This document shows positions 4,999 to 52,156 of a stretch of DNA of 64,000 bases, piece by piece. The stretch is from Nitrosopumilus sp. (lineage in GTDB: Archaea > Thermoproteota > Nitrososphaeria > Nitrososphaerales > Nitrosopumilaceae), in contig OZ241981.1 of NCBI GenBank assembly GCA_965204345.1, forward strand, positions 1,504,001 to 1,568,000, written 5' to 3'. Each line of letters begins with the position of its first letter. Position 1 is the first letter of the stretch. A program made the position numbers and the translations under genes. The notes beneath the pieces were generated by a model. It searched no databases, was not told where the DNA came from, and worked only from the letters and a program-made list of their open reading frames with translations.

Positions 4999-5123
4999 TA
5001 GCCCCTACTATTTCTGTCAGGAGTTCCAACACTTGGATTTCTCCAGCCGTGCTTCTCCATCATGTGGTTTAGCAATCTAATATCATTGTCACATGCTTCC
5101 CCACATACACTACAATCCGGCAT
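4995..5123 (-). CDS. Small C2H2 zinc-finger protein (42 aa), not in the ORF track
   Basis: Manual translation MPDCSVCGEACDNDIRLLNHMMEKHGWRNPSVGTPDRNSRGY* has C-x2-C-x12-H-x4-H. Confidence 0.7.
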   Translation of the reverse strand: MPDCSVCGEACDNDIRLLNHMMEKHGWRNPSVGTPDRNSRGY

Positions 5124-8768: not shown

Positions 8769-8841
8769 GATTGTGTATGATAACATCAATATTTAATTTT
8801 AAACCAAAAGACCATTTAATGGAAAAAAACAGTCTTAAAGA

Positions 8842-32983: not shown

Positions 32984-34072
32984 CTAGGCATCCAGCTTTC
33001 TCATTCTAGCAGATAAAACCGGAAGTTCCTTGTCTATGATTTTTTCCACGGCAGGCACAAGTCCGGCCCTTGCCTTGACACTTTCCTCATAAAGCTCCGT
33101 AATTTGATCTCTGAATAATAACTTGATTCCGGGAAGCGCAGTTATGCCCTCATCAACAGTCCTTGGATCAGATAAATCCAGAATTAAGGTGCCTTTTTTC
33201 TTTTCTTCCATCACTAGCTTGATCCTATCAAATGTAATCAAAAAGTAATCAGAAGTAGTTGCAACAAAAATTATGTCATATTTATCAAATCCTGCCAATA
33301 CATCGTTAAAATCCACAGGAGTACCGCCAAGAATGGTTGTAAACCCGGTAGCACGCCCAATACTTCTGCTTGTGACATCAAAGGCAACCTCCTTTTTATT
33401 CAGAGTCTTTGCAAGCATTGCGGCAGGCTCACCGGTACCAATTACGAGCACCTTTTTCTTGGAATCCAGACCCGCCTTTTCATCAACAAGCTTTACTGCA
33501 ACATCACCCAAAGAAATCACATTTTTTGAGATTCCTGTGGTATCCCTCATTCGTATGGCAAGTCTGATCACACTGTCAAATAATTTATTGAGAATGTTTC
33601 CAGATACTCCTGCATCCTTTGCTTTTGCTAGGGATTGTACAATCTCATCAAAGACTTCCTGTTTGCCGACTACTACAGAATCCAGACCCGATGCCAATCG
33701 CAGCAAATGCAAATAGACGTCATCGCCTTTGTAGACTTCAAGCGTTTGATCAAAATGATCAATATCAATTTGCTCTAACGAGGATAAAGACACCCATGTG
33801 TCTTTTATTTTGTTTAACACAAGCGTTTTTCCCTCTTCCCTTCTAGCGTCTGGAGAGTCATCAGTTTCAACATTGCTAACAGTGAATATTTCGACCCTGC
33901 TTGCCGTCTGGATAATAATACATTCATCAACACCGGGAATTTTTTTGAATTCCTCGCATGCTGCATTGACATCCTTGAAGGTAAATTTGGAGAGTGTGTG
34001 CAGAGGAATATTTTTGAAAGTTACCCTGGCATTCATTACATCAAAAGATACGCGGCCCAAAACATCACCCAT
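32984..34072 (-). CDS. Glutamyl-tRNA reductase-like protein (HemA paralog lacking the catalytic Cys)
   Basis: HLLRLASGLDS, IGTGE and DLSDPRTVD match HemA, but the canonical TCNR motif reads TASR. Confidence 0.8.
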   Translation of the reverse strand: MGDVLGRVSFDVMNARVTFKNIPLHTLSKFTFKDVNAACEEFKKIPGVDECIIIQTASRVEIFTVSNVETDDSPDARREEGKTLVLNKIKDTWVSLSSLEQIDIDHFDQTLEVYKGDDVYLHLLRLASGLDSVVVGKQEVFDEIVQSLAKAKDAGVSGNILNKLFDSVIRLAIRMRDTTGISKNVISLGDVAVKLVDEKAGLDSKKKVLVIGTGEPAAMLAKTLNKKEVAFDVTSRSIGRATGFTTILGGTPVDFNDVLAGFDKYDIIFVATTSDYFLITFDRIKLVMEEKKKGTLILDLSDPRTVDEGITALPGIKLLFRDQITELYEESVKARAGLVPAVEKIIDKELPVLSARMRKLDA

Positions 34073-34878
34073 TATGCGCTAATTTTATCCCGTCCGCCCT
34101 TGGCTGTTCTAAAAACATTCATACCGATATAGAAATTCTCATGCAATGATTCCAAATAAGTAATCTCATTCTTTGTGTCCTGAATTTCTTTCTCAGTGGC
34201 ATCAGGATCGTCTTTTAATTGTTTTAATTTCTGCCTAGTCTCCTCTAAAAATGAGCTAACGCCACGTTCATAATTTGAAACGCCCTCAAATTCGGGACTA
34301 AGAACATTTTCTGGAACATAGGCAGGAGTCTGATCCTGCGGGATCTCTGCCTTTCTTGTAAGCGATTCTTGCTCATCTGCAGAAAGTATGGGTCTTGGAA
34401 ATCTGTCTTTTTTATCTAGGAAGAATTCCGGCTCGCCCATATCACGTCTGAAAATTTCTTCACCCTGTCTTTTGAAAGTATGATCAGACTTTTTGGTCGC
34501 ATCTGCCTTAACTTCAGCAGCAATTGCTTTGTATTCTTCCTCGGCTGCTGCCTCTGCCTGTTCTTTAGCTGCCTTTGCTTTTGCAAGGGCCTCTTTGACT
34601 GCACGTTCGGCCTCTTCTACGGCCTTGGCAGCGGCTTCTGCCTTTAATGTCGCATCCTCAGCCGCTTTTGCATCATCAGCTGTTTTTTCAGCCGCTTTTG
34701 CAGTTGCATCCTCAGCCGCTTTTGCATCTTCAGCTGCTTTTTCAGCCGCTTTTGCAGTTGCATCCTCAGCCGCTTTTGCATCCTCAGCCGCTTTTGCAGT
34801 TGCATCCTCAGCCGCTTTTTCAGAGGCTGAATCTTTAGTTGGTTTTACTTTAGACTCTTTTTTCTCTTCAGACAACAA
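34072..34878 (-). CDS. Ala/Glu/Lys-rich repeat protein (coiled-coil)
   Basis: N-terminal tandem AAEDATAK/AAEDAK/AAEK repeats followed by a unique C-terminal region. Confidence 0.75.
   Translation of the reverse strand: MLSEEKKESKVKPTKDSASEKAAEDATAKAAEDAKAAEDATAKAAEKAAEDAKAAEDATAKAAEKTADDAKAAEDATLKAEAAAKAVEEAERAVKEALAKAKAAKEQAEAAAEEEYKAIAAEVKADATKKSDHTFKRQGEEIFRRDMGEPEFFLDKKDRFPRPILSADEQESLTRKAEIPQDQTPAYVPENVLSPEFEGVSNYERGVSSFLEETRQKLKQLKDDPDATEKEIQDTKNEITYLESLHENFYIGMNVFRTAKGGRDKISA
34650..34822. repeat. Coding tandem repeats (CAGCCGCTTTTGCA / GCATCCTCAGCCGCTTTT units)
   Basis: Multiple near-identical 12-24 bp in-frame units. Confidence 0.85.
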
Positions 34879-36510: not shown

Positions 36511-38362
36511 TTAGAATAGTCGTTTCTGACTTCTTTCTATATTTTTCATGCCTATTTTCTTTTTCCTTGATTTTTTGCTCTTTTTAGTTTTCTTGGATGC
36601 TTTTGAGACAATTTTTTCTTCCTTTGATTTATCCAGATTTAGTTTTGGTTGTTTACCCCATACCATCTTTTCTAGCTCTGCTCTCAATCTCATCGTCTCG
36701 ATTGAGACAGTTGTTACTTTTCGTAACAGATCTATCACATGTTCCTTATGATCTGCAAATTTGTACGTGTTGAATTTTTTCCTAATTTTGGGATCATCAC
36801 ACGATTTGGCGTGGATCATGTTTTTGGATTCTTTGTAGAATTCCAGAATCCATTCCAGTGCACACCTTGAGCTGAACTTGTATCTGAGGGCATCGTCTGG
36901 TATGTCTTCCAACATGGTCTGTTCATCTATTACTATTTTTGATAGTTTGTCCTCTTCCTTGGATTTCTTTAGACTTAATTTGACGCGGTTTTTCTTGGTT
37001 TTTTTGTCAGTTCGCTTTAGAGGATATGGTTTAGCACTTTCGAATCCAACATGAAGATCATAGAGTTTTTTGCCTATCCCAACCCATTCCATGAAATTTT
37101 CTGCCAAGGGTATTCTCGGGAATTTTCGTTGCAGATTGAACATATATTTTTCTGAATATTTTGGGTCATTGAATATGGCATATGTGTAATAGAATATGTC
37201 CTCATAAGTTATTTTACTACTTTTGTAATATGTTTGAAATAATTTTAAACCAAACTCTGTGATATTACTGTATCGTTTATTATTATCTCCATACATGTAA
37301 AGTGGAATACATTGTGCGCCAGGAATACAATCGTTTGAAGTTATTTTATTCGTTGCCAATGTTTGAAATAATATGTTAGTTTTTGGATTTACAAAACATA
37401 TTATCTTATTTGAATTTTGATCTGGAAATATCTGCGGAAATTTTCTTAACCAATCGATTATTATTTTGTCAAAGTATTGATATTTTACTACGAACGGTCT
37501 ATACATTGTCTTTTGAATATTTGTTTTGGTGTAAGATAAGCGATTACCGCGCAATAAATGATTTAATCCGCCTCTAGTCCATTTTATTGTTTTGTCTATC
37601 TCTTTCCCAATTTCTTTTACAGACTTTGTTGTATTTTCATATGTAACAATTTGACGATTATAAAATGTGAAAAAATATTTGATTTTATTTTCTAATCTTT
37701 TTTTATCAAAACTATATACCCAATCGTCTTTGGATGACATCGTTCCCATTGAAAGCAATTCAAACAGGGAATTCTCATCATACGCCACAGGAACCAACTC
37801 ATCAAAATCATTATTGGTCTGGTTAAGCCAATTAGCCTCCTTGTCAGGCATTATTTGCCTTAGTGATAGTGTAGAAAGCGAGTTGTCCGCAAGCCATTTG
37901 AGCTTCTCTTCTCTTTTCATATCGTCATCGACTTGTGTATAATAGATCTTAGATACCTTTTCACCAGTTTTAATAAAGAAGGAGATTGTGATGCCTATCT
38001 TCGCTTTACTTCCAAATACTTTTCCACCTTGTTTTCTCCAATTGGTTACATTTTGATTTCCTTTTAAATTTACAGTATAGATGTAATCAAATTCCTCATA
38101 TACTGCTCTCCTAAAACCGTCATCTGACTTTGCATCAAGAAAAGAATTATTGCTAATAAACACAACCATGCCATTTTTCTTGATACGCTCACTTGACCAC
38201 TTAAGAAACCGTTTGTACATGTCATACTTGGTGCTACCTTTTTTCACATTGGTATTGCTCCAAGTCTTTTCGATTTTTTGGTCAATGTCAGGATATTTGT
38301 CTGCAGGGTTAGCATCATTGAAGGATACCTGTATCGCGTTGTACGGCGGGTTTCCCAAGACC
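36511..38362 (-). CDS. Alternative (probably silent) 3' cassette of the Type ISP/IIG-like methyltransferase-specificity gene; 5'-truncated, starts at the GNPPY motif
   Basis: Intact 615-codon frame, inverted relative to 44550-46413 and a mosaic of identical and divergent blocks against it. Lacks the N-terminus and the SAM-binding motif I. Confidence 0.9.
38056..38362. repeat. Inverted repeat block 1, left arm (307 bp)
   Basis: Perfect reverse complement of 44550-44856 by manual alignment. Confidence 0.93.
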
Positions 38363-38366
38363 TGTC

Positions 38367-39530
38367 TTAATGGTGTGTGAGTATAGCCAGAATGCAGTCA
38401 ATCTGCTTCGGTGTAGCCTGATCTATCATCTCTTGTATTCGTTGCTTTTGCTCCAATTTGGGAATCTCACTAACTTGATCCAGATATTTCTCAGATCGTG
38501 CAAAAGCATTACTCATCTCGTTTACTAGAATTACAGGAAGTATTCCCTTGTTTGTAGTATATCTTGATTCTATGGTTCCTTTGTGTCCCATAAAGAAGGT
38601 ACGAAAATCATGTGCCATCTTTCCACGAGATTCTGCGATTAACAGTTGTGTATCAAAATATGCACGTAATACATAAGGCCTCCATGTAAATTTTGGTCTG
38701 AAAGTCTGACGTATTCTATCGCTTATGCGCTGTGTTGGAAGGAATGCCTTTTTTGATCTACGCCAAGTGTGTGTTGCTCGGTGGTCATTTGGAGATATTA
38801 CCGGTGAGTGTCCACACAGATCCTCCCCACATGCCAGCCTGTCGTTTAGATACGTCACAAGATGTTCTGTTGCAGATCTTGTGGAAAATGTAAAGTATTG
38901 ATGTCCAGCTTTTGACAGCTCACGTCTTACTATGATTTTATTTGGTAACTGATTGCACTTTACTTTCCCATGACATATTGTAATATCTGGAAGATCTCTT
39001 ATCTGTAAACCATCAGTTCCTCTATAGTTTCCAATTACTCCCGGTCTTAGACCTGATTTAGCCATCAGAGAAATCATTACAGATTCCCTCAAATCGGTTT
39101 TACGGTATATGTCTAACATCTCACTTGCATCTGGCACTCGTTCGTTCTGTAATGTAGGGGAAAAACCGAGTGATGCTACTCTTACTTTCCTTCTTACCAT
39201 TACGTCAAAATGTCTGAACCATGATTTTACGGTGTTTATATGATCTTCAATGTAACCGGGAGAATAATTGTGAGATTCCATCATTGTTATATGATCCTCC
39301 AGTAGATCGGTTGCAGTTCTTAGATCATTTACCGCTAGATCTGCAAGATGTGCAGGGTTAGTATGGTGCATCTCGCAGAACCTTCCCAGCTTTCGAAGAC
39401 GTCCTTCAGCTGTAAGCGGACTTCCACGTACCATGTTGTCATACCATCTTTTGACATCTTGATCCTGAAGCAGTTTAGATTTTTTGTGTTTGATTGAGCT
39501 AGCTTTTGTACATGATTTGTGAGTTGTCAT
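38367..39530 (-). CDS. Tyrosine recombinase/integrase (candidate invertase)
   Basis: Catalytic set: R (SGLRPG), K (LSKAG), YxxR in place of HxxR (YVLR), H (MGHKG), Y (SRYTT). Confidence 0.88.
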   Translation of the reverse strand: MTTHKSCTKASSIKHKKSKLLQDQDVKRWYDNMVRGSPLTAEGRLRKLGRFCEMHHTNPAHLADLAVNDLRTATDLLEDHITMMESHNYSPGYIEDHINTVKSWFRHFDVMVRRKVRVASLGFSPTLQNERVPDASEMLDIYRKTDLRESVMISLMAKSGLRPGVIGNYRGTDGLQIRDLPDITICHGKVKCNQLPNKIIVRRELSKAGHQYFTFSTRSATEHLVTYLNDRLACGEDLCGHSPVISPNDHRATHTWRRSKKAFLPTQRISDRIRQTFRPKFTWRPYVLRAYFDTQLLIAESRGKMAHDFRTFFMGHKGTIESRYTTNKGILPVILVNEMSNAFARSEKYLDQVSEIPKLEQKQRIQEMIDQATPKQIDCILAILTHH

Positions 39531-39880
39531 ACATATGGGTTTTAAACTAGCAACTTAATTCCGTTACCCAAGAAATTACTCTCTGTTTATAAAAAAACAT
39601 CACGCAACATGCATATTAGAATCATTATTGCTGTTTGATATCCACCCAAACCCATATGACCTCAGAATATCGTTTATCCCACACAAGATTTGTTTGTCTA
39701 TACACGACTATGCAAGAATTGAACTCCCAATAGGTGAACATATTAAGAATTATCCGCCAAAGAAAAAATAACCATGATAGTCAACAGAAGGCCAACGTCA
39801 TTCACATCACAAGGCATGCCAAAAAAATACAAAATATCTGTTGAAATGTTGAGATTAAAAAGGAGGCCATATAACCTAAA

Positions 39881-42800
39881 ATGAGTAATATGTCTGATGA
39901 AGAATGTCACATAGACAACGAAGACATAATAGACAATGAACATCACATACTCATCGATCATCTTCGTTCTGCCTTGCCAGAAACCAAGAGAGCAAGTATT
40001 GCTGTAGGTTATTTTTTCATCTCGGGATTTTCTGAAATTATGGACAGCTTAGCAAGAATAGAGAACAGTGAAGATCCAAACGACATGATACGCCTGCTAA
40101 TATCCCCCACCACAAACCGTGCTACAGCTGAGGCTCTACTTGCTAGCAATGAGAATTTGGATTCCGTTCGAAAAAATATATCAGTAAAAGAAACCACTGA
40201 TGAGCAGGAAGTAGGAATCATGAAAGACCAAGTGAAAAAAACTTTGGAATACATGCCTCAGACAACAAAAGATCAAGTAGCTGCCAAAAAGATCAGAGAA
40301 TTAATTCAAAAGAAAAAGCTACAGGTAAAGGTATACACCAGAGAACAACTACATGCAAAAGCATACATCTTTGAGCTTGATAACACCATAGCTCCACGGA
40401 TGGCAATAGTTGGATCCAGCAATCTTTCAATATCTGGAATAAAGGAACATACTGAATTAAATTTAAAGACCAAGAATGATGCAAATGTCAAAGGTCTGCT
40501 ACAGTGGTTTGATTGTCATTGGAATGATAAAAGTTGTAAGGAATTTACAGAAGAGATTGCAGATATTTTAGATCGATCATGGACAGGCAATGACAACACT
40601 CCTGAAGATGTATACGGCAAGGCATCCTTGTATGAACATGAAAAATTAATAGGTCATGGAGTTGACGGTGAGTCTAATGGAACTAAGGAACTGTTTGACT
40701 TTCAAAATAAGGCTGTCAGTGAGGCACTTACAAAACTCGATAATTACAATGGCGTGATCATTGCAGATGTGGTTGGCACAGGCAAGTCATATATTGGTAG
40801 TGAGATACTGAAGCGTCTCAAGGATTATCAACACGCAAAACCTTTGGTGATCTGTCCTCCACATCTAATTGAAATGTGGAGAAATCTTTTGCGCGATTTT
40901 GACATTTATGGAGAAGTAGAATCCAGATTTAAAATAGGTATGGATGATAATGTGTTACGTCGTTATACACATTGTGATGTGATACTGATAGATGAGAGCC
41001 ATAACTTTAGACATCACGATACCAATGCATATCAAGCACTGTCTGCATTTATGGAAGAAAAGACCGATGAGGCAAAAATGATAATGCTTACTGCCACACC
41101 AATATCCAACACCATACACGATCTTAAAAACCAGCTAAAGCTATTTCCTACAGAGGGTGTTGAAAGAATACCGCCTGTTGGATCTACCAAATTGGATGAG
41201 TACTTTAAAGGACTAGAAAGTGCAACCAGAGAGGTCAGTCCAGAAGGGGTAATCAAGATCCAAGAACTGTTAAAACATGTACTAATACGCAGAACTCGAA
41301 CCCAGATCATAAAAAAATACGCAAAACGTGATGGTAATAGATATTATATGGACATGAAAGAAGGACGTAAATATTTTCCAAAACGAAAGCTGCAAAATCC
41401 AGAGGAATATGATGCAGATAAGGTATACAACAATGCCTTTGCACAGATAGAAAATGCAATAGAATCACTTCATCTAGCAAGATATGTTCCAGGAAAATAT
41501 ATCAAAGATGAATTTCTCACAGATACAAGATATGCTGATCTTGTAAACATCTCAAGACCAATGTCTGGCATAGTCAGAACATCCCTACTGAAACGAATGG
41601 AAAGCAGCCTAAAGGCCTTTGATACTAGTATCAACAACTACCAGAAAGGATACAGACTATTTAAAAAACAATTAGAGAAGGGTAGAATTCCAATTGGAAA
41701 GGAATTCAAGGATGTAATATACAAAAAGATGGATGATGATTATGATGACAAAGATTATGATGAAGATATTGCAAACATCAAATCAAAATATGATATCAAG
41801 GCATTTGATGTGGATTTGTGGAAAAAAGAGATTGATGAGGATCTTAGCAAGTTTGCTGAAATTGTAGGCCATCTACGAGGTGAGGAATTTACAAAACGAG
41901 ATGACAAACTTCACAAGCTCCGAGATCTGATCAAAGACAAGGATGAAAAGATCTTAATATTCTCAGAATCAGCAGAAACTGTCAAATACATTTATGATTA
42001 CCTGAAAGATGAGCTCCCAAAAGATAGAAAGATAGAAAAGATTGACTCCAAGGTGGATCAAAAGACAAAAACATCGCTAGTGGAGAGATTTGATCCCAAG
42101 AACAACAATGCGGCTGATAAAATACCCGAAAACAAAGAGATTGACATACTGGTAAGCACTGATGTTTTATCAGAAGGAGTAAATCTGCATGCTGGCAAAA
42201 CCGTAATCAACTATGACTTTCACTGGAATCCGGTACGACTCATTCAAAGAGTCGGAAGACTGGACAGGATTGGTTCAGAGCATCCGATAATCGATATTTT
42301 CAATTTTCTACCTACAACAAAAATTGACATAGCACTATCATTACAGGAAAGAGTATCTGAAAAAATTAGAACAATTCGTAGAATAATTGGTTCTGACCAA
42401 CAAATATTGGTGGCAACAGAAGACATTGATGAAAAAGGCATATCGCCAATATACAATCCTGATGACAATGATGACATATCAGATCCAGAGATACAGAGTG
42501 GCATTTTCGACATAGAGGAAACAGATTCTGAAAAACATGCAGATGATATAAGCCAAGATAAGGAGAAGAAAAATTATTTTGACAATTTACCGTTTGGAAT
42601 AAGGGCAGTAACTGGTTCAGACAAGCTCATAATAGCATGCGAGGCAGAAGGATCAATTTTGGATCAAGACGGAAGGGGTAATCTCGGTACAGCATTTAGA
42701 AAGCATTATGAAATAACAAAAAATGGAAATCTGAATTCCATAACTCCATCATCTTTTCTCAAACAGATTGGTAACAACATCAACCATACAGGAAAATGTG

Positions 42801-43252
42801 ATGACTTGCAGTACAATGATTTAGTAGGCATTGCGTGGAAACGGTTCGTACGGGATATGAAAAATGAATCAGTCCGAAATACAGAGCGTAAACATCAGAT
42901 ATTTTTTGATAAAAAATTGACACGTATTGCAACACATGATAGGTCTCTTGCAGAACGTGCAAAGAAACTAAAACCGTTTGTGACTGCTGAAAAGTCCGCC
43001 ATGCTAGCATCACGAGCTACACTTGCAGAACGTGCAAAGAAACTAAAACCGTTTGTGACATCTAGAATGAGGCACACACATCAGCCTTATAGAAGCCTGT
43101 CTGAGTTGCACAGACAGATTGACAAAGACGTTTCAATGAATGATGCTACGATAATTGATGAACTTGAAAAAATCCAAAAAAAATACGGCCACATCAAATA
43201 TACAAAGACCATCAAAAAGCCCAGAATATTATACAGTATGATGGTGAGCTAA
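39881..43252 (+). CDS. PLD-family nuclease + SF2 (SNF2-like) helicase, putative restriction/motor subunit
   Basis: AVGYF, HAKAYIFE...GSSNLS (PLD HKD-like), Walker A VGTGKS, DESH, LTATP, SEGVNL and QRVGRLDR motifs. Confidence 0.9.
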   Translation: MSNMSDEECHIDNEDIIDNEHHILIDHLRSALPETKRASIAVGYFFISGFSEIMDSLARIENSEDPNDMIRLLISPTTNRATAEALLASNENLDSVRKNISVKETTDEQEVGIMKDQVKKTLEYMPQTTKDQVAAKKIRELIQKKKLQVKVYTREQLHAKAYIFELDNTIAPRMAIVGSSNLSISGIKEHTELNLKTKNDANVKGLLQWFDCHWNDKSCKEFTEEIADILDRSWTGNDNTPEDVYGKASLYEHEKLIGHGVDGESNGTKELFDFQNKAVSEALTKLDNYNGVIIADVVGTGKSYIGSEILKRLKDYQHAKPLVICPPHLIEMWRNLLRDFDIYGEVESRFKIGMDDNVLRRYTHCDVILIDESHNFRHHDTNAYQALSAFMEEKTDEAKMIMLTATPISNTIHDLKNQLKLFPTEGVERIPPVGSTKLDEYFKGLESATREVSPEGVIKIQELLKHVLIRRTRTQIIKKYAKRDGNRYYMDMKEGRKYFPKRKLQNPEEYDADKVYNNAFAQIENAIESLHLARYVPGKYIKDEFLTDTRYADLVNISRPMSGIVRTSLLKRMESSLKAFDTSINNYQKGYRLFKKQLEKGRIPIGKEFKDVIYKKMDDDYDDKDYDEDIANIKSKYDIKAFDVDLWKKEIDEDLSKFAEIVGHLRGEEFTKRDDKLHKLRDLIKDKDEKILIFSESAETVKYIYDYLKDELPKDRKIEKIDSKVDQKTKTSLVERFDPKNNNAADKIPENKEIDILVSTDVLSEGVNLHAGKTVINYDFHWNPVRLIQRVGRLDRIGSEHPIIDIFNFLPTTKIDIALSLQERVSEKIRTIRRIIGSDQQILVATEDIDEKGISPIYNPDDNDDISDPEIQSGIFDIEETDSEKHADDISQDKEKKNYFDNLPFGIRAVTGSDKLIIACEAEGSILDQDGRGNLGTAFRKHYEITKNGNLNSITPSSFLKQIGNNINHTGKCDDLQYNDLVGIAWKRFVRDMKNESVRNTERKHQIFFDKKLTRIATHDRSLAERAKKLKPFVTAEKSAMLASRATLAERAKKLKPFVTSRMRHTHQPYRSLSELHRQIDKDVSMNDATIIDELEKIQKKYGHIKYTKTIKKPRILYSMMVS
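42947..43059 (+). repeat. In-frame 38-bp direct repeat with a 37-bp spacer in the helicase C-terminus
   Basis: CTTGCAGAACGTGCAAAGAAACTAAAACCGTTTGTGAC at 42947-42984 and 43022-43059; LAERAKKLKPFVT appears twice. Confidence 0.92.
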
Positions 43253-46200
43253 TGAGTTTTGATGAGCACATAAAACCACTGCAAAGAGATTTTCAGAATG
43301 TAGGGTACACTACAATCCGGGAACCGTGGGATACCAGCAGACTTTGCAACGAAGACGCTGTGATAGATGTGGAAATAATTGCAAGGAAGGATTATTTCAA
43401 TATTTTGTATCTTGAGGCAGAATCAAATTGGAGGGGATTATCCAGTCAAGTAGCCCAAAAAAACACAAATCCCTGTATGGTGATTACCCGATACGGCGAT
43501 ACACATCACATCTTTACTACAATGAGAGATCACGGAACTTTGCATGCAAAGCCTCGACATGTCATATTGAGGACAGAGATTAAAAAAGAGTTGATTGTCA
43601 AATTCATTCACGAGATTAAGGTTAACGTAAATGATGAACACATAGAAGTTGACACAAAAGTACAAAATGCATTTGATAAATTCACTGCATACCAACAGGC
43701 CATTGATGAATTTGCTGAGAATCTTGAAAAAGCGATAAAAAATACACGTGCTATAATAGTCAAGTCATCAAAAGACAGCAAAGACTATGATGTAGAAGCT
43801 GCAAAATTTCTAGACATGTGTCGCAAGGTAATTAGCGATAAGCTAGAACCAAACGACATTACAGAAATGTTATTGCAACATGTCCTAACATACAGAATTT
43901 TTGCCCTGATATATGATGAACACAAGCTTCATACTACAAATGCAGTTGCACGATCTCTCGAAGGATTGATCAACATACTTGGCATGGATGTAAAAGAGAT
44001 TAATGCAAACTATAGTACAATAGAGCTTGTCGCAGAGTCTATCACTGATGCTACAGAAAAACAGGATTTTCTAAAGCAGGTATATGAAACATTTTATGCA
44101 AAGTATGATCCAAAAAACAAGGACAGTTGGGGAATAGCATACACGCCATCAGAAGTAGTAGACTTTATGGTAAAGTCTACAGAACAATTACTTGAGAAAC
44201 ATTTTGGAAGAAATCTCTCTGATGACAATGTCACAATACTTGATCCTGCAACTGGAACCGGAACATTTGTGACATCCGTTTTGAGACATACAAAACCGAC
44301 ATCGCTTGAATCAAAATACAACAATGATATTTTTGCAAATGACATATCTATACTTGCGTATTACATCGCAGCTCTAAACATAGAGAATACCTATCAGGAA
44401 ATAACAGGCAAGATTAAAGAATTTGAGAATATTTGTTGGATGGATACTCTTACAAGCGGTACAAAAGATTTTGGTAAATTAAGCTCATATTTTGACGGAC
44501 AAGACAACGTAAAGCGCATATCAAGGCAACAAACAAAGGACATATGTGTGGTCTTGGGAAACCCGCCGTACAACGCGATACAGGTATCCTTCAATGATGC
44601 TAACCCTGCAGACAAATATCCTGACATTGACCAAAAAATCGAAAAGACTTGGAGCAATACCAATGTGAAAAAAGGTAGCACCAAGTATGACATGTACAAA
44701 CGGTTTCTTAAGTGGTCAAGTGAGCGTATCAAGAAAAATGGCATGGTTGTGTTTATTAGCAATAATTCTTTTCTTGATGCAAAGTCAGATGACGGTTTTA
44801 GGAGAGCAGTATATGAGGAATTTGATTACATCTATACTGTAAATTTAAAAGGAAATGCAAGAACATCTGGTGAGCTACGACGAGAACAAGCAGGCAATGT
44901 ATTTCGAGATACTATCAAGGTAGGAATCACCATATCGTTCTTCGTTAAAACTAGTGAGAATAAATCAGAGATTCATTATACTGAGATAGATAACTACCTA
45001 AAAAGCGAAGAGAAGCTCAAATGGCTTGCGGACAACTCGCTTTCTACACTATCACTAAGGCAAATAATGCCTGACAAGGAGGCTAATTGGCTTAACCAGA
45101 CCAATAATGATTTTGATGAGTTGGTTCCTGTGGTAAATGATGTCAACTCTGTATTTAAGAAGTTTTCATACGGTTCTCAATCAAATCGAGATGAATGGGT
45201 ATATGATTTTGATAAAAAAAGATTAGAAAATAAAATCAAATATTTTTCCACATTTTATAATCGTCAAATTGTTACATATGAAAATACAACAAAGTCTGTA
45301 AAAGAAATTGGGAAAGAGGTAGACAAAACAATAAAATGGACTAGAGGTGGATTAAATCATTTATTGCGCGGTAATCGCTTATCTTACACCAAAACAAATA
45401 TTCAAAAGACAATGTATAGGCCGTTCGTAGTAAAATATCAATACTTTGACAAAATAATAATCGAGTGGTTAAGAAAATTTCCTAGTATATTCCAAGATTC
45501 CAAGCCAAACATGTTAATTGGATTTCCAAATCCCAAGACTAACATACCATTCCATACATTAGTAGCTGATAAAATTATGGACACAGGCTCTGTTCTTGAT
45601 ACACAATGTATTCCACTTTACATGTATGGAGATAATAACAAACGATACAGTAATATCACAGAGTTTGGTCTAAAATTATTTCAAACATATTACAAAAGTA
45701 GCAAAATAACTTATGAGGACATATTCTATTACACATATGCCATATTCAATGACCCAAAATATTCAGAAAAATATATGTTCAATCTGCAACGAAAATTCCC
45801 GAGAATGCCATTGGCAGAAAATTTCATGGAATGGGTTGGGATAGGTAAAAAACTCTATGATCTTCATGTGGGGTTCGAAAGTGCTAAACCATATCCCCTA
45901 AAGCGAATCGACAAAAAAACCAACAAAAATAACGTCAAATTAAGCCTAAAGAAATCAAAAATAATGATCGATAATCAGACAATTCTTGAAGATATTCCAA
46001 ATCAGGCATTACAATACAAGTTTAGCTCAAAATGTGCACTAGAATGGATTTTGGAATTCTATAAGGAATCAAAAAATCAAATATCAGACAAGTCATGTGA
46101 TGATCCCAAAATTAGGAAAAAATTCAACACATACAAGTTTGCTGATTACAAGGAACATGTGATAGATCTGTTACGAAGAGTAACAACCGTCTCAGTCGAA

Positions 46201-46413
46201 ACTATGAGATTGAGAACAGAATTAGAAAATATGCCTTGGGGCAAACAACCAAAACTAAATCTGGATAAATCAAAAGGAGAACAAACTATCTCAAAAGTAT
46301 TCAAGAAAACTAAAAAGAGCAAAAAAGTAGCAAAAAAAACCCGCAAGAAAACAAAACAGGCAGCCGGTATGCAAGAAACACTTGACGACCATGGTCAAAA
46401 AAGGCTGCTCTAA
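43252..46413 (+). CDS. N6-adenine DNA methyltransferase with Type ISP-like C-terminal specificity domain (complete allele)
   Basis: YTPSEVVDFMV, ILDPATGTGTF (motif I) and GNPPY (motif IV). NLKGN, RDEWVY, YRPF, IFYYTYAIF...Y...L...PR.P and ALEWI are typical of Type ISP C-terminal domains. Coupled to the helicase through TAATG. Confidence 0.9.
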   Translation: MSFDEHIKPLQRDFQNVGYTTIREPWDTSRLCNEDAVIDVEIIARKDYFNILYLEAESNWRGLSSQVAQKNTNPCMVITRYGDTHHIFTTMRDHGTLHAKPRHVILRTEIKKELIVKFIHEIKVNVNDEHIEVDTKVQNAFDKFTAYQQAIDEFAENLEKAIKNTRAIIVKSSKDSKDYDVEAAKFLDMCRKVISDKLEPNDITEMLLQHVLTYRIFALIYDEHKLHTTNAVARSLEGLINILGMDVKEINANYSTIELVAESITDATEKQDFLKQVYETFYAKYDPKNKDSWGIAYTPSEVVDFMVKSTEQLLEKHFGRNLSDDNVTILDPATGTGTFVTSVLRHTKPTSLESKYNNDIFANDISILAYYIAALNIENTYQEITGKIKEFENICWMDTLTSGTKDFGKLSSYFDGQDNVKRISRQQTKDICVVLGNPPYNAIQVSFNDANPADKYPDIDQKIEKTWSNTNVKKGSTKYDMYKRFLKWSSERIKKNGMVVFISNNSFLDAKSDDGFRRAVYEEFDYIYTVNLKGNARTSGELRREQAGNVFRDTIKVGITISFFVKTSENKSEIHYTEIDNYLKSEEKLKWLADNSLSTLSLRQIMPDKEANWLNQTNNDFDELVPVVNDVNSVFKKFSYGSQSNRDEWVYDFDKKRLENKIKYFSTFYNRQIVTYENTTKSVKEIGKEVDKTIKWTRGGLNHLLRGNRLSYTKTNIQKTMYRPFVVKYQYFDKIIIEWLRKFPSIFQDSKPNMLIGFPNPKTNIPFHTLVADKIMDTGSVLDTQCIPLYMYGDNNKRYSNITEFGLKLFQTYYKSSKITYEDIFYYTYAIFNDPKYSEKYMFNLQRKFPRMPLAENFMEWVGIGKKLYDLHVGFESAKPYPLKRIDKKTNKNNVKLSLKKSKIMIDNQTILEDIPNQALQYKFSSKCALEWILEFYKESKNQISDKSCDDPKIRKKFNTYKFADYKEHVIDLLRRVTTVSVETMRLRTELENMPWGKQPKLNLDKSKGEQTISKVFKKTKKSKKVAKKTRKKTKQAAGMQETLDDHGQKRLL
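44550..44856. repeat. Inverted repeat block 1, right arm (307 bp)
   Basis: Perfect reverse complement of 38056-38362. Confidence 0.93.
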
Positions 46414-48164: not shown

Positions 48165-48998
48165 CTAGACTTTGATTAGCGTTGATTTTTTATTCTGTAT
48201 TTTAGTGATGCAGAAATTGGCAAATTCTTTTTCGGTATATTCCACTTCCTTTAGGACACTGTTGACCTTGGTGACTGTTGGGTATTGATCATATGTCCTG
48301 CCTTTGATTGTACGTCCTCCAGACTTTGGTCTGATTCCTCCCCATTGTTTGAAAAAAACACAAACCTTTTGCTTTTTGCATTGTTTTATGATATCTAGAA
48401 TCCACTTTTCTTCTACTTTGCGGTAACCTGGGCCACTTTCTCCTCCAATGATAACCCAGTCAATGTTTTTCAGATTTAGTTGGCCAACTGAACCAATCAA
48501 CGGCTCTATGCTCAAAAATCTTGTATGACATTTTACTTTCCGTAAATCATCAACTCTCCATTTGTAGTCTCGGTTTTCGACACTCACTCCCATCCAAATA
48601 TGTGGAGGTATTTTTTCTCCAAAGTAATCTCTAAACAGTTTTGAGAATTCAAGCATGACATGAGAACGTTTTGTCAGGACCTGATAGAAATGATGATCTG
48701 CTCGTAGCATGGTGTGAAAACAGCTGCCAATGTATTCCATTCTGGATTTTTCATGAAACAAATCCGACATGCTGTTTACAAAAACTTTCTTGCTTTTCTT
48801 CCAAGTCAAAGGTAATTCCAAGTCATCAGGCTGTTCTGTAAACTCAAAATTATTTTTGTATTTTTTTACTCCCATTGCTTTTAGTCTTTTTGAAAGTTTT
48901 TCAGCATAACAATTTGCACAACCGGGAGATATCTTGGTGCACCCTGTTGTAGGATTCCACGTTGCCTCTGTCCATTCAATGGCGGAATTGTTTGCCAT
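48165..48998 (-). CDS. DUF5131 / phage Gp37-Gp68 family three-Cys-motif protein (radical SAM-like)
   Basis: IEWTEATWNPTTGCTKISPGCANCYAE, FVNSMSDLFH, WVIIGGESG and FFKQWGG motifs. Confidence 0.92.
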   Translation of the reverse strand: MANNSAIEWTEATWNPTTGCTKISPGCANCYAEKLSKRLKAMGVKKYKNNFEFTEQPDDLELPLTWKKSKKVFVNSMSDLFHEKSRMEYIGSCFHTMLRADHHFYQVLTKRSHVMLEFSKLFRDYFGEKIPPHIWMGVSVENRDYKWRVDDLRKVKCHTRFLSIEPLIGSVGQLNLKNIDWVIIGGESGPGYRKVEEKWILDIIKQCKKQKVCVFFKQWGGIRPKSGGRTIKGRTYDQYPTVTKVNSVLKEVEYTEKEFANFCITKIQNKKSTLIKV

Positions 48999-49139
48999 AT
49001 TTTTATCAGATCTATACTATTACTAAAATATTCATTTTGTAGATTGCGTTAAATTTTGACTATGGGTGCACGTATGTTCCACTGCGAAAATAAATAGCTC
49101 TAAAAAAATTAATATCATTGAATCATCACAAGGTATTAC

Positions 49140-50102
49140 TTGCCGAACAAATTTTCTATAACTGACAGCATCAAGCGAGCAAGAACAAGTTTTTCACACA
49201 TTTACAATGACGGTTTGGAAAAATCCATCGGAGATATCTGGTCCATCAAGAAATTTCTCTTGCTTGACTATTACATGCCTGTTTTCATATCTATCGTAAG
49301 CAACAATAATTTCAAGGAATTTTATTATGCAGATCCTTTTTGCGGTTCGGGAAAGTTTGCAGATTTTAAGGATCCTATCTTGAAAAAAGAATCTTTTCCA
49401 GGTTCTGCGCTAATTGGAGCACTAAATGCATCATGTTTGGGATATACCGGCTGTATTTTCTCTGATACTAATTCGGCTTATGTTGATTCATTTAATGCTC
49501 GCTTGGAGAAAAGTAAGATTATTCCAAATAATATTTCTTACAAGGCAGACACTATGGACTTTGAAAATACTGTAAAGAAAATCTTGGCGATGAGAAAATA
49601 TCAGGTTGCAATTCTTGTTTTGATAGACCCTGCTGCATATGTTCCGATTAAGTGGCATCTTATGGAGAAGTTATCTAAAGAGATTGGCGTAGACATTATC
49701 CTTAATTTTTACACTCACAGAATAGCACAGAATGTTTCTGCTACAAAGAAAAACAAGAGTGTAGAAAAGAATCTTGATGAGTTTTTTGGCGATGATTCTT
49801 GGAAGAAAATCAGAGACGGTCCAAGGTCCTCTTCTTTGGGAGAAAAATTGCTAGCACTTTACTTGGAAAAGATTCGTGTAGCATCTAAAAAAAATGTAAT
49901 AGATATAGGGGTGTACAAAGAGGGATCTCAGAAACTGTATGATTTGATTGTAATTACAAGAAGTCATGCAGGTGCAAAAGTAATAACAGATGCAAAAGAA
50001 GTGATGAGAAACGCTACTACTGAAGCTATAAAGCGTGAGCTCAAGACTCAGATTACGTCACAGACAAGACTCTTTTCTAATTCATCAAAAGACTTTGCGT
50101 AA
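49140..50102 (+). CDS. tcmP: Three-Cys-motif partner protein (TcmP-like, methyltransferase fold)
   Basis: WSIKK..LL.YY, YADPFCGSG, GSAL, LIDP and FFG..SW motifs; adjacent to DUF5131, its usual partner. Confidence 0.8.
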   Translation: MPNKFSITDSIKRARTSFSHIYNDGLEKSIGDIWSIKKFLLLDYYMPVFISIVSNNNFKEFYYADPFCGSGKFADFKDPILKKESFPGSALIGALNASCLGYTGCIFSDTNSAYVDSFNARLEKSKIIPNNISYKADTMDFENTVKKILAMRKYQVAILVLIDPAAYVPIKWHLMEKLSKEIGVDIILNFYTHRIAQNVSATKKNKSVEKNLDEFFGDDSWKKIRDGPRSSSLGEKLLALYLEKIRVASKKNVIDIGVYKEGSQKLYDLIVITRSHAGAKVITDAKEVMRNATTEAIKRELKTQITSQTRLFSNSSKDFA

Positions 50103-50350
50103 AAAGATATGATTGTGGATAAGAGAAGATCTGCAAAAGAACAGCAAAAAAGGGATTCTAGTAAATTTTGATGATCTGATCACCGGAAATTAACAGCAAA
50201 TTGCAAGAGATGATTTTCTTAAAAATTACCAAGTTTTAATCATCAAAAAATCTCAAAGTACAACTCAGAGATTACTAAATATGTGAATTATGACATAGAT
50301 CACCAAAATTTACCAGAACCGGATTGAGCTAGGAATTTAAACAAAATTAG

Positions 50351-50428
50351 TGGCGCCCTCGGCGGGATTTGAACACGCGTCTCAGCCGTGACAGGGCCGA
50401 ATTCTAGACCGGGCTATACTACAAGGGC
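50351..50428 (-). tRNA. tRNA-Asp(GTC)
   Basis: GCCCTTG...CTGTCAC...GTTCAAATCCCGCCGAGGGCGCCA cloverleaf with encoded CCA. Confidence 0.95.
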
Positions 50429-50524
50429 ACAAGTTGTTTGAAATAAAATGCCCGATTAAAAGTTTCTGTCATAACAAAATCTTTTGTAAAAGACTAAATT
50501 ATACAGTAAAGGCATTTTTTACGA

Positions 50525-50598
50525 GGGTCTATGGCGCAGCCAGGTAGCGCACCGGACTTTTAATCCGGTTGTCAAGGGTCCGAATCCCTTTAGACCCG
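50525..50598 (+). tRNA. tRNA-Lys(TTT)
   Basis: GGGTCTA/TAGACCC acceptor stem; CCGGA-CTTTTAA-TCCGG anticodon arm. Confidence 0.93.
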
Positions 50599-52156
50599 CT
50601 TCTCTTTTATCTCATTTTCAAGGCTCAAAAGTACCATGATGACCGATTGAAATCTATAGTAGTCTTGTAGGACATAGTATAATCATGTCAAAGACGTTCA
50701 AACTTTCAATAGATGATCGTATAACTTAGCACTAGGAGAATCTACGCGTTTTTTTATATCCTTTTTACCGCAGTCTATCTTTAAAATAGCATTATTTTTC
50801 AAATTTTTTATTTGATTTTAAGATGATATACCTTTTCAATGAAAGGAATTGCATTTTTTATATCGTCTTTATTATTGATTTCAGACATATAATCACCAAT
50901 TCCCCAGTGACCAATTTTTTCTCCATTTTTTTTACGCATGTATCTAACAAATTTTGATTCAGGCATAATGTCTTTCTTGCTTGTAGAATAACAGCATTTC
51001 AGTTTGACCGTAGATATCTCAAGTGTACATATTGCAGAGCCATTAGTATTAGAATAGAATCCACCATACCTACTTTTTTGTTTAAATTCTAAATCAGGAA
51101 ATTTTTCCAAAATACGATTTTTCATTAACTTGTATAATCTTCTTGCAGATTCTTTTGGTATTCTGTTTCGAAAATATTTTCCGGCAAGATAATCATCTTC
51201 AGAATATTCATCCAGTCTTTGAGGACGATTTGTTTTTGTTTTTGAGGAATCTATTCTACTTTTCTGAATTTTTTCTAGGATTATAATGTCATCTTCAAAT
51301 CGACTAATCTTGTATAGATCAATTGGATCCTTTGTTCTGTTTGCAGACCGTAGTTGATGTAGGGTGAATTCTGGTGCAATAATGATCACCTTTGATTCTT
51401 CCCATTCAACATCATTCATCTTGAGTGATTTACTTTTTTCATTATTGTATAACAAAAGAAAAGCTTCTTTTTTATCTTCCAACAAATCAAGATATGCCAT
51501 TCCTTGATCTAATACTCCTCCATGTTTGATGTTCTTGTATTCAATTATGACAAAAGAGTTTGATTCTTTGTTGAATGCAACAGAATCAATCCTTAAACCA
51601 TCCAAAGAAAATTCAGTATAAATAAATTCCAATTCAGGGAAAATTATTTCAATATTTCTTTCAACTAATGTTTGAATCATCTTTTCATAGTCAAATGCCC
51701 TCTTTTTATCACCGATTTCTTTAATGCCCGTAAATCCGGATGGTTTAGATTGAAAAATCATTACACCCATATGAAAATATGAAATTTTAATTTTTTATAA
51801 ATAGATCGATTGAATTCACTAAAGAGATTCATTAATCTATACATTCTGAAAGATTTGAAATCATCGTATAAGATTTGAAATCAATATACTCACAAACTAA
51901 AACCAGATGAACTATTGATCAAGAGTTTAGAAAATAGGTTAGAATTACGGACAGAAAAATCCAGAACAATTAGAGACAAATACTTTTTTTGCTTCCTCAA
52001 TATGTTTACAAGGATTAGAATATGTCTTAGGTGCCATTCCAAAAAATCAATAATTTATTAGATCATCAAATAGCCTCTATCTAAAACAGTAGGTGCTCTA
52101 TTTCATGAAATGAATTTGAAACAGGCAATATCAGAGCAAATAATCCGTTTAGACCC
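50583..52156. mobile_element. Mini-island at the tRNA-Lys 3' end
   Basis: AATCCCTTTAGACCC (50583-50597) recurs as AATCCGTTTAGACCC (52142-52156), 14/15, bracketing an AT-rich nuclease gene. Confidence 0.6.
50808..51770 (-). CDS. PD-(D/E)xK nuclease (NucS/DUF91-like) with DUF5655-like C-terminal domain
   Basis: E..IQ, RIDSVAF..IIEYK, DQGMAY and IIIAPEF motifs; C-terminal GHWGIGD. Confidence 0.75.
   Translation of the reverse strand: MGVMIFQSKPSGFTGIKEIGDKKRAFDYEKMIQTLVERNIEIIFPELEFIYTEFSLDGLRIDSVAFNKESNSFVIIEYKNIKHGGVLDQGMAYLDLLEDKKEAFLLLYNNEKSKSLKMNDVEWEESKVIIIAPEFTLHQLRSANRTKDPIDLYKISRFEDDIIILEKIQKSRIDSSKTKTNRPQRLDEYSEDDYLAGKYFRNRIPKESARRLYKLMKNRILEKFPDLEFKQKSRYGGFYSNTNGSAICTLEISTVKLKCCYSTSKKDIMPESKFVRYMRKKNGEKIGHWGIGDYMSEINNKDDIKNAIPFIEKVYHLKIK

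Follow-up and report, generated by a model that had tools for sequence, protein, structure and literature searches.

A putative inversion shufflon exchanging single recognition loops of a Type ISP-like restriction-modification system in a Nitrosopumilaceae-like archaeon

Introduction

Almost all programmed gene-altering inversions catalogued so far are bacterial. In the Type I hsdS shufflons (pneumococcal SpnIII/ivr, Bacteroides fragilis; PMC7672463) silent inverted partial genes, several repeat pairs and a nearby tyrosine recombinase generate combinatorial alleles, presumably as bet-hedging against phages. In the BREX type 1 system of Lacticaseibacillus rhamnosus, nested inversions exchange the middle part of the large MTase gene pglX, and a recombinase lies beside the partial copy (PMC9881135). 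Table 3 of the same paper lists inversions of Cj0031-like Type II (Type IIG) restriction-modification (R-M) genes beside a PLD + SNF2-helicase CDS (CP083813.1, CP044495.1), and the paper reports coexisting variants, confirmed by long reads, at 22 loci, some of them with more than two variants. That inversion catalogue is restricted to bacteria, and PMC10028968, which covers 42 archaeal long-read sets, none of them thaumarchaeal, calls archaeal invertons “minimally investigated”. In the literature we searched, supplements aside, we found no case of an archaeal Type ISP/IIG R-M inversion.

Here we describe a locus in a 64,000-nt stretch of archaeal DNA (the window) whose host we call Nitrosopumilaceae-like, and which we read, with a probability of about 60%, as a two-gene, Type ISP-like R-M system whose specificity half is shuffled by inversion. 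The locus combines a full-length gene with a promoterless inverted partial copy, repeats that flank variable sequence, and an encoded recombinase with a putative action on those repeats. These features recall the hsdS shufflons, but hsdS systems shuffle whole TRDs of a separate S subunit, whereas here single loops of a fused chain (one in the MTase, two in the TRD) would be exchanged, and the inverted segment would span the recombinase gene, the motor-nuclease gene and the target gene's 5′ half. BREX pglX belongs to another defence system, and its single-inversion intermediates lack the C-terminus, whereas each single inversion here would still give a full-length gene. At the level of gene architecture the locus resembles the Cj0031-like loci, in which a PLD+SNF2 protein is likewise encoded beside a single-chain MTase-TRD protein and inverted repeats are shared with partial copies; it differs from them in its archaeal host, in a recombinase of the integrase family that is invisible to Pfam, and in that its coexisting variants are putative. 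What seems new, then, is an archaeal and finer version of a bacterial trick, in which single loops appear swappable between copies.

Results and Discussion

Layout of the locus and class of the enzyme

The gene order across the locus is inverted cassette, REC, HEL and MT, with the following features (coordinates in the window).

36511..38358, minus strand: silent cassette, a promoterless ORF of 615 aa (ORF list, Pfam, alignment to the full gene)
38367..39530, minus strand: REC, a predicted 387-aa tyrosine recombinase, inside the putative invertible core
39531..39880, no strand: REC/HEL intergenic region between divergent genes (gene layout and sequence), presumed to carry promoters that move with the invertible core
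39881..43252, plus strand: HEL, a 1123-aa PLD/HKD nuclease and SNF2 helicase
43252..46413, plus strand: MT, 1053 aa, with an N-terminal domain, ISP coupler, gamma-class N6A MTase and Type_ISP_C TRD; taken as the expressed copy

The cassette sits inverted 6.2 kb upstream of the MT copy and straight behind REC, its start lying 8 nt past the REC stop codon. Reading from motif IV (NPPY), it has the C-terminal half of the MTase domain but lacks the N-terminal one, and it includes the entire TRD; its Pfam matches are to Type_ISP_C (2.6e-73) and to profile positions 80-165 only of Eco57I. The HEL stop codon and the MT start codon overlap. HEL matches PLDc_2, SNF2-rel_dom and Helicase_C in Pfam (the nuclease being PLDc_2 / NgoFVII-type PLD) and C3a139 “HKD+Snf2” in PADLOC (1.3e-70). 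MT matches PF22240 (coupler), PF02384/PF07669 (MTase) and PF18135 (Type_ISP_C TRD) in Pfam, REase_MTase_IIG in PADLOC (1.2e-189), and 7lo5 (DrdV, 2.6e-191), LlaGI (6e-115) and LlaBIII (8e-115) among PDB sequences; its residues 1-145, which lie outside the DrdV alignment, have no Pfam family even at E<=10.

A preliminary description of this DNA had treated MT as a Type ISP enzyme, which was not borne out: nuclease and ATPase belong to a second protein, of PLD+SNF2 type, and among solved structures MT comes closest to DrdV, a Type IIL enzyme. [quoted passage not shown] DrdV (PDB 7lo5/7lvv) aligns with MT residues 146-991 over connector, MTase and TRD, and its base-contact positions transfer directly. 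DrdV carries a PD-ExK nuclease at its N-terminus, opposite the part of MT (residues 1-145) that does not align, and it has no motor partner.

The region from 35 to 52 kb is low in GC, holds further candidate defence genes and is adjoined by tRNA genes. Such surroundings would suit an explanation without programmed switching, which we consider quite improbable: that a mobile defence island, with REC as its integrase, carries the cassette as a partial paralogue, that the copies meet only through rare RadA-type recombination, gene conversion and import, and that selection keeps two specificities different. Thaumarchaeal integrated elements with R-M genes and XerC/D-type integrases (PMC6563490) speak for it, but no att-like direct repeat of >=13 nt was found linking the tRNA-Asp/Lys region to the island, apart from one chance match.

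Conserved blocks and variable segments

When the reverse-complemented cassette is set against the full gene without gaps, the shared part falls into four blocks (B1 to B4) and three variable segments (V1 to V3), followed by a tail.

38056..38362, minus strand: B1, cassette arm, 307 nt with 0 mismatches to the full-gene arm; Loop I (NPPY) and Loop II
44550..44856, plus strand: B1, full-gene arm, residues 433-535
37912..38055, minus strand: V1, cassette version, MTase Loop III, two codons shorter than the full-gene V1
44857..45006, plus strand: V1, full-gene version, residues 536-585, Loop III
37785..37911, minus strand: B2, cassette arm, 127 nt with 0 mismatches to the full-gene arm
45007..45133, plus strand: B2, full-gene arm, residues 586-627
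37712..37784, minus strand: V2, cassette version, TRD Loop IV
45134..45206, plus strand: V2, full-gene version, residues 628-652, Loop IV
37436..37711, minus strand: B3, cassette arm, 276 nt with 5 mismatches; helix H and Loop V
45207..45482, plus strand: B3, full-gene arm, residues 653-744
37317..37435, minus strand: V3, cassette version, TRD Loop VI
45483..45601, plus strand: V3, full-gene version, residues 745-784, Loop VI
36961..37316, minus strand: B4, cassette arm, 356 nt with 17 mismatches (36966..37316: 351 nt, 16 mismatches)
45602..45957, plus strand: B4, full-gene arm, residues 785-901 for 45602..45952
45953..46413, plus strand: tail of the full gene (“variable 4” of the preliminary description), guide subdomain (dS/dN and PMC4872093)

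A repeat search gave the same inverted pairs, and a MAFFT alignment shows the variable segments together with a 21-nt indel at 45953. The gapless comparison reproduces the block coordinates and counts given earlier, and the peptide differences quoted there are present in the translations. In B1 and B2 identity ends exactly at both edges.

The contrast between blocks and variable segments is far beyond chance. Nucleotide identity between the copies is 63% in V1, 57% in V2, 62.5% in V3 and 75-81% in the tail, and Nei-Gojobori dS is 1.27 in V1 (dN 0.39), 2.39 in V2 and 1.22 in V3 as against 0 in B1, 0 in B2, 0.059 in B3 and 0.19 in B4; judged by these distances, the variable segments are shown to be old and the blocks young. 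A dS of 0 across 434 nt indicates very recent exchange, which argues against the explanation without programmed switching. The blocks are homogenised within each genome: when this genome (G000) is compared with the syntenic locus of a second genus (G120), every quartet-informative block site groups the copies by genome, the amino-acid sites dividing 20/0/0 in B1, 10/0/0 in B2, 29/0/0 in B3 and 13/0/0 in B4.

How might such a pattern arise? In the mechanism we propose, HEL and MT would form the expressed operon and the cassette a silent, promoterless template. Reciprocal recombination between the copies inside any of B1 to B4 would invert everything between the crossover points, the inverted core carrying REC, the promoters, HEL and the 5′ part of MT, and would join the expressed 5′ part of MT to every cassette segment distal to the crossover. 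A series of such inversions, using different blocks, would then bring together V1, V2 and V3 in any combination, up to eight from two templates. We infer that the crossovers take place within populations as inversions, that at least the one in B1 is the work of REC, and that the hybrids retain activity but recognise altered target motifs. A more ambitious form of the proposal, a dedicated archaeal shufflon in which REC drives frequent multi-block inversions that reassort Loops III, IV and VI into up to eight specificities per cell lineage, is tentative and in our judgement rather doubtful. Crossovers in several blocks would reassort the loops even if switching were not programmed, and only rate and enzyme would then differ.

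An alternative that we consider unlikely is a binary switch, in which REC inverts at one site, the proximal edge of B1, so that V1 to V3 and the tail change places as one unit, only two alleles exist and B2 to B4 are by-products of gene conversion spreading outward. The fall of identity with distance from the core, noted in the preliminary description, is what this alternative would lead one to expect, and in this genome it holds. It does not hold as a general property, and its non-monotonic course elsewhere counts against the binary switch: at the syntenic locus in G120 a perfect block returns at the 3′ end and extends beyond the stop codon, and in a further relative, here called REL, the two copies of B3 have only 52% protein identity.

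Recognition loops and number of alleles

The base contacts of DrdV (bioRxiv 10.1101/2021.01.06.425610) and Loops I-VI of LlaGI (PMC4872093) were placed on MT via HMMER alignments. V1 corresponds to LlaGI Loop III and carries the equivalents of DrdV N548/R554/D564; V2 corresponds to Loop IV and carries that of N673 (N645 in the full gene vs S in the cassette); V3 corresponds to Loop VI and carries those of D803/K807 (G779/D783 in the full gene vs D/G in the cassette). The DrdV-contact positions thus placed differ between the copies in six cases out of six (three in V1, one in V2, two in V3), and the recognition elements common to both templates are Loops I and II (B1), helix H and Loop V (B3), except for E738D.

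Four variable segments had been expected to lie at the DNA interface and to give 2^4 = 16 alleles. V1, V2 and V3 do map there, as Loops III, IV and VI, but “variable 4” maps to the guide subdomain, which takes no part in target recognition (PMC4872093). With a dS of 1.05 and a dN of 0.11 over residues 902-1000 (dN/dS ~0.1), this tail looks like ordinary old divergence under purifying selection and carries no apparent recognition element. Sixteen alleles are therefore formally reachable as sequences, but as specificities there would be at most 2^3 = 8 loop combinations, because “variable 4” lies in the non-reading guide. Since changes of specificity often need compensating changes elsewhere (PMC4872093), some of the hybrids may have no activity.

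If the hybrids are active, this one 10-kb locus would provide an archaeal symbiont or plankton population with rotating restriction and methylation specificities, a form of bet-hedging against viruses that may also act as an epigenetic switch. The locus is also a natural experiment on the interchangeability of single Type ISP/IIL recognition loops, the engineering obstacle posed in PMC4872093. Should the dedicated shufflon prove true, it would be the first natural shuffling of R-M specificity at the level of loops and not domains, and ammonia-oxidising archaea would have their first example of a phase-variable methylome and defence system; the natural hybrids would offer a ready recognition code for engineering Type ISP/IIL enzymes.

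The recombinase

REC has no match in Pfam, NCBIfam, PHROG or PADLOC (Pfam Phage_integrase is absent even at E<=10), and phmmer/hmmsearch and profile searches against the PDB gave nothing or spurious TALE-repeat matches; only a fold search was informative. The AF2 model (pLDDT 85.4) has XerA 5hxy, IntI 2a3v, Cre and XerH as its top Foldseek matches, with probability 1.00, and 45 matches at E<=0.001, and on this model REC is predicted to be a two-domain tyrosine-recombinase fold (Cre/Xer/Int). Residues R162, K207, R289, H316 and Y324 are invariant across 33 sequences, with Y286 at the usual position of the first His, and probably represent the catalytic R-K-(H)-R-(H/W)-Y set.

Is REC a member of a dedicated invertase family? 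As a general statement we rejected this: the family comprises ~2000 archaeal “site-specific integrase” proteins, and an inverted repeat of >=30 nt was present at only nine of 71 relatives' loci. HEL and MT adjoin a REC relative at one of the 71 (L024), which is without a cassette. At another locus (L013), a REC relative that is 65% identical adjoins a Type I system in which hsdS is present twice, as inverted copies. This large family, mostly without flanking inverted repeats, favours the view of REC as an island integrase, as does the finding that five of the seven close relatives examined lie beside assorted R-M or Dnd genes, which is to be expected of island integrases. It is countered by at least eight of the closest REC homologues, which share a contig with a close MT/TRD homologue (a co-location that we deduced), and by the order cassette-REC-HEL-MT, which is kept in two genera with REC 78% identical.

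The position of REC bears on the binary switch as well. REC ends 4 nt from the edge of B1, and the G000 and G120 genes share their longest exact stretch of nucleotides, 43 nt with 100% third-position identity, across the start of B1, as would fit a conserved cis site. A core motif common to the four blocks was sought and not found (0 matches among 10-16-mers with 1-4 mismatches), so that a single common recombinase core in every block is not supported, which again suits a switch with one site. B2, however, is no less perfect than B1, and conservation between the genera is likewise seen in the first 29 nt of B2.

Natural recombinants and related loci

A natural case is REL, for which a full gene (P0123), a cassette (P0125) and a REC that is 98% identical (P0002) were grouped, by deduction, as one genome. 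Scored at the protein level and from an assembly, with diagnostic sites counted as full-type, cassette-type or neither, V1 gives 0/27/1 in the full gene and 26/1/1 in the cassette, V2 gives 12/1/1 and 1/12/2, and V3 gives 22/1/0 and 0/22/1, respectively. At this level the scores are shown to correspond to a reciprocal exchange of V1 alone between full gene and cassette, which implies one crossover in B1 and one in B2. A non-parental haplotype, set beforehand as a test of recombination, thus exists in the REL assembly, and the crossover needed in B2 argues against the binary switch. REL is no simple sister strain, since the N-terminus of its MT is only 81% identical to that of G000.

G120 not only keeps the gene order but also has perfect blocks at residues about 434-530, 590-630 and 690-750, the positions of B1 to B3 here. 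In G120 a second cassette starts at the B2 boundary, which we set aside as evidence of design since an IS fragment (DDE_Tnp_4) forms its 5′ end; the homology nonetheless starts inside the conserved B2 element.

Among eight full/cassette pairs, four combine 99% identity in B1 and 98-100% in B2 with 46-54% in V1. Family-wide (119/120 homologues), V1 correlates with the other segments at rho 0.13-0.24 and the other segments with one another at 0.23-0.52, and 34 of 7021 pairs have V1 >=90% and V3 <=60% identical, so V1 assorts almost independently across the family, which the binary switch would not lead one to expect.

A canonical Type ISP gene in another genome, G123 (Mrr_cat_2 + ResIII + coupler), is accompanied by an inverted TRD cassette whose repeats measure 770 nt and 486 nt, and the 17 kb examined there contain no REC-like recombinase. 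For such loci general homologous recombination may therefore be enough, a point in favour of exchange that is not programmed.

The search of 40 relatives gave one further genome with the gene, and that of 400 family genomes gave 34, of which only G120 is syntenic. Metagenome contigs yielded 80 loci, all at <=42% identity and with an inverted repeat of >=60 nt in two; the REL DNA was not among them.

Evidence from sequencing runs

Could the mosaic, or the REL difference, come from collapsed or chimeric assembly of the alleles of two strains? Metagenome assemblers can mis-phase over repeats of 127-307 nt, and a minor second cassette haplotype, which may be a second strain, is present in two runs (depth 28 of 188 in X5 and 80 of 210 in X7). 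We regard such an artefact as highly improbable all the same. The window is part of a 2.04-Mb contig, and the layout recurs in a separate genome, G120. Ten matching runs were available as Logan contigs, of which X1, X2, X5 and X7 were compared with the window; among the pieces listed for X5 and X7, each differs from it by 0-1 letters, and over all pieces compared the differing places number only 5 in X5 and 4 in X7. In X5 the B1 contig has a depth of 298, with unique flanks at 139.5 and 149.5, and this approximately double depth is expected of two real copies and indicates no assembly collapse. Contigs of these runs end at the blocks and so leave V1, V2 and V3 unlinked to the flanks.

With regard to REL itself, an arbitrary resolution of collapsed B1/B2 repeats by a graph assembler would yield the same “reciprocal swap”.

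In the runs, loose contig ends at 45166 and 45236/37682 run into sequence absent from the genome. Two kinds of contig joint were considered as inversion junctions and rejected: one in X1 on “opposite strands” (37296 to 45850), and one in X5 and X7 that “skips 227”. Both kinds of joint are best read as a putative cassette haplotype with a stretch of ~224 nt in B4 that is unlike both window copies. This haplotype matches the REL cassette, which is divergent at ~residues 790-864 and one codon shorter there, and it also agrees with the N-to-Y change at 37335.

Gene content of the locus

The locus consists of an expressed full gene (MT), an inverted, promoterless partial copy of it (the cassette) and the two genes REC and HEL, arranged in the window as follows:

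36511-38358, minus strand: cassette reading frame, with Type_ISP_C and, of the Eco57I methyltransferase (MTase) profile, just the final portion; starts at NPPY
38367-39530, minus strand: REC, tyrosine-recombinase fold by model
39881-43252, plus strand: HEL, PLD/HKD nuclease and SNF2 helicase (PADLOC name 'HKD+Snf2')
43252-46413, plus strand: MT, with ISP coupler, N6-adenine MTase and Type_ISP_C

The stop codon of HEL overlaps the start codon of MT. [quoted passage not shown] As the classes are defined, the different nuclease and split genes separate the system from Type ISP, and it is probably not Type IIL either. The source genome, G000, has archaeal rRNA genes, and the nearest homologues come from records named Nitrosopumilus, Nitrosopumilaceae or Cenarchaeum. 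Elsewhere in this genome, at C1:1374830-1377424, a further and unrelated Type ISP-like gene fills an open frame of 1592 aa; it shares 32% identity with MT and looks like the canonical single-chain form.

Shared blocks and recognition loops

When the reverse-complemented cassette was compared with the full gene without gaps, the four near-identical blocks (B1-B4) fell exactly where the preliminary description had placed them, and a repeat search and a MAFFT alignment agreed. At both ends of B1 and of B2 identity breaks off exactly, and between blocks it is 57-63% at the nucleotide level. In the MTase, DrdV contacts bases through N448, Q485, K486, K488, N548, R554 and D564, and in the target recognition domain (TRD) through N673, R721, Y764, D803 and K807 (bioRxiv 10.1101/2021.01.06.425610); PMC4872093 assigns Loops I-III of LlaGI/LlaBIII to the MTase, and helix H together with Loops IV-VI to the TRD. 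Both sets were transferred to MT through sequence alignments to the solved relatives. LlaGI residue numbers were taken as chain index + 164, inferred from the described deletion of residues 2-165 and the chain length of 1406; as a cross-check, NPPY lands in Loop I and the DrdV contacts land in the same loops.

Blocks, divergent segments (V1-V3) and recognition elements (cassette / full gene coordinates; dS by Nei-Gojobori)
B1: 38056-38362 / 44550-44856; 307 nt, 0 mismatches; dS 0; Loops I and II; N448, Q485, K486, K488 equivalents identical in the two copies
V1: dS 1.27; Loop III (residues 533-556); N548, R554, D564 equivalents R/R/D versus N/W/S
B2: 37785-37911 / 45007-45133; 127 nt, 0 mismatches; dS 0
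V2: dS 2.39; Loop IV (640-647); N673 equivalent N (full gene) versus S (cassette)
B3: 37436-37711 / 45207-45482; 276 nt, 5 mismatches; dS 0.059; helix H and Loop V; R721, Y764 equivalents; same in both copies except E738D
V3: dS 1.22; Loop VI (776-786); D803, K807 equivalents G/D (full gene) versus D/G (cassette)
B4: 36961-37316 / 45602-45957; 356 nt, 17 mismatches; dS 0.19
Tail: residues 902-1000; dS 1.05, dN 0.11

The low dS of the blocks against the high dS of V1-V3 (dN 0.39-0.48) and of the tail shows that the full gene and cassette are old alleles, in which the blocks are islands recently made alike. The tail had been proposed as a fourth variable recognition element; it maps to the guide subdomain, which according to PMC4872093 takes no part in LlaGI/LlaBIII recognition, so that the recognition modules that matter are three, not four. 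The outward decay of identity described earlier is seen in G000 but not in a genome of another genus (G120) or in the assembly of a relative (REL), and thus is not general.

Proposed reassortment of recognition modules

The REL full gene (P0123), cassette (P0125) and REC (P0002, 98% identical) are all listed on an equal-sized longest contig. Sites at which the two G000 copies differ were scored in REL as full-type/cassette-type/neither. In V1 the REL full gene gave 0/27/1 and its cassette 26/1/1, against 12/1/1 and 1/12/2 in V2 and 22/1/0 and 0/22/1 in V3. An inversion in B1 and then another in B2 would produce just such a reciprocal swap of V1 alone. These are protein-level data from another group's assembly, and collapsed repeats that had been resolved arbitrarily would look just like such an exchange. 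The MT N-termini of REL and G000 are only 81% identical.

G120 keeps the order cassette-REC (78%)-HEL-MT. Its copies are identical over residues ~434-530, ~590-630 and ~690-750, divergent in between, and identical again from ~930 through and beyond the stop codon. All informative block sites group the G000 and G120 copies by genome; by-genome/positional/crossed counts, small in both cases, are 0/1/5 in V1, favouring the crossed grouping, and 0/3/0 at the end of V3, favouring the positional one. Across 119/120 homologues, V1 identity correlates with that of other segments at rho 0.13-0.24, and the other segments among themselves at 0.23-0.52. V1 at >=90% with V3 at <=60% occurs in 34/7021 pairs, the reverse in 5 and both at >=90% in 6, counts from a database clustered at 90% identity and so stripped of near-identical proteins. 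Identical B1 and B2 with divergent V1 occur in 4/8 full/cassette pairs, paired by inference from equal-sized contigs.

What, then, becomes of the proposal that specificity is shuffled combinatorially? For V1, reassortment is supported at the sequence level by the REL swap and the family-wide assortment, and for V2 and V3 it is plausible; the fourth module drops out. At the population level the proposal is unproven. Contigs assembled from public sequencing runs break at the blocks, and runs X5 and X7 contain a minor cassette haplotype (depth 28 of 188 and 80 of 210) that is the only form seen in X1 and X2. Spanning 37069-37381, it has a ~224-nt stretch unlike both window copies and changes at 37335 and 37351, and its B4 stretch matches the REL cassette protein type. 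It shows that the locus is polymorphic, and may simply be a second strain. X5/X7 contigs leaving the locus at 45166 and 45236 / 37682 run into sequence absent from the assembled genome.

Insertion sequences have entered the G120 locus (L109, C2:750000-769900), where a DDE transposase frame (8402-9745) separates HEL from REC and a transposase fragment is fused to cassette 2 (3444-5045). The sole same-genus orthologue among 40 relatives (G015:C68:19555-22667) is spread over two neighbouring frames, one aligning with query residues 1-613 and the other with 603-1033, and is probably frameshifted.

The source of the crossovers

REC had no match in Pfam, NCBIfam, PHROG, PADLOC or PDB sequences. Its AlphaFold model (33 homologues, pLDDT 85.4) matches XerA, IntI, Cre, XerH at Foldseek probability 1.00, and R162, K207, R289, H316 and Y324 are invariant in the 33 sequences. 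That REC acts at least at B1 is, in our judgement, just short of an even chance. In two genera REC keeps a fixed place beside the cassette, at least eight of its closest homologues lie on equal-sized contigs with a close MT/TRD homologue, and a 65% relative (L013) adjoins a Type I system whose hsdS is present as two inverted copies. In addition, where the MT genes of G000 and G120 match exactly at the nucleotide level, the longest stretches lie at block edges (44533-44577 and 45018-45046): one of 43 nt crosses the B1 start (L109 near 14650-14695; 100% identity at third-codon positions) and one of 29 nt lies at the B2 start (L109 near 15140-15170), again with silent positions included, and inside the latter homology of G120 cassette 2 begins. 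These two elements are candidate cis sites. However, the REC family has ~2000 members annotated as integrases, and 5/7 close relatives examined have R-M or Dnd genes of various kinds as neighbours, the setting expected of island integrases. HEL and MT accompany only 1/71 REC-relative loci, that one without a cassette, and an inverted repeat (>=30 nt) occurs in 9/71. No motif is common to all four blocks (10-16-mers, 1-4 mismatches), and the Type ISP cassette of genome G123, whose repeats are long and perfect, has no REC-like gene in the 17 kb read. That homology-driven recombination alone makes the crossovers is a tenable reading, which we hold at rather less than even odds.

Related loci and novelty

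The G123 locus (C1:2078000-2095000) has a canonical Type ISP gene (Mrr_cat_2, ResIII and coupler / MTase-TRD) split by an insertion sequence (DDE_Tnp_1), and in its inverted TRD-only cassette a variable stretch lies between two shared repeats, one 770 nt long (99%) and the other 486 nt (100%). At L013 (OZ243974.1:1708264-1729394), where hsdM is split, the hsdS copies (6229-7503, minus strand; ~943-2112, plus strand) have inverted repeats 90% identical, and the locus may be an archaeal hsdS shufflon. Three further REC relatives (L071, L014, L012; 63-66% identical) neighbour, in that order, an MmeI-family Type IIL gene and DndB, Type I hsdS and hsdR, and an N6_N4 MTase. Within Nitrosopumilaceae, this clade of REC proteins goes along with R-M and defence modules.

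Inversion of R-M specificity is an already known kind of locus: PMC9881135 describes bacterial loci that share this gene architecture and whose inversions were confirmed by long reads. We found no archaeal Type ISP/IIG inversion locus in the literature searched, passages of PMC10028968, PMC7672463, PMC6563490 and PMC13076061 among it. The archaeal host, the recombinase family and the natural single-loop recombinant are new, as is, compared with the main-text accounts of bacterial loci, the demonstration that blocks bracket single recognition loops.

Downstream of MT lie a DUF5131 protein (48165-48998; PADLOC PDC-M41B/M30B), frames matching PDC-M41A (49140-50102) and PDC-S18 (50808-51770), and tRNA-Asp and tRNA-Lys (50351-50599). 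GC is 0.30-0.35 across much of 35-52 kb versus ~0.41 in the flanks; the low GC and the candidate defence genes (48165-51770) suggest a defence island. At 34640-34828, five in-register copies of a degenerate 81-nt direct repeat sit in tandem within a 268-aa frame (34072-34878, minus strand; no Pfam family) beside hemA.
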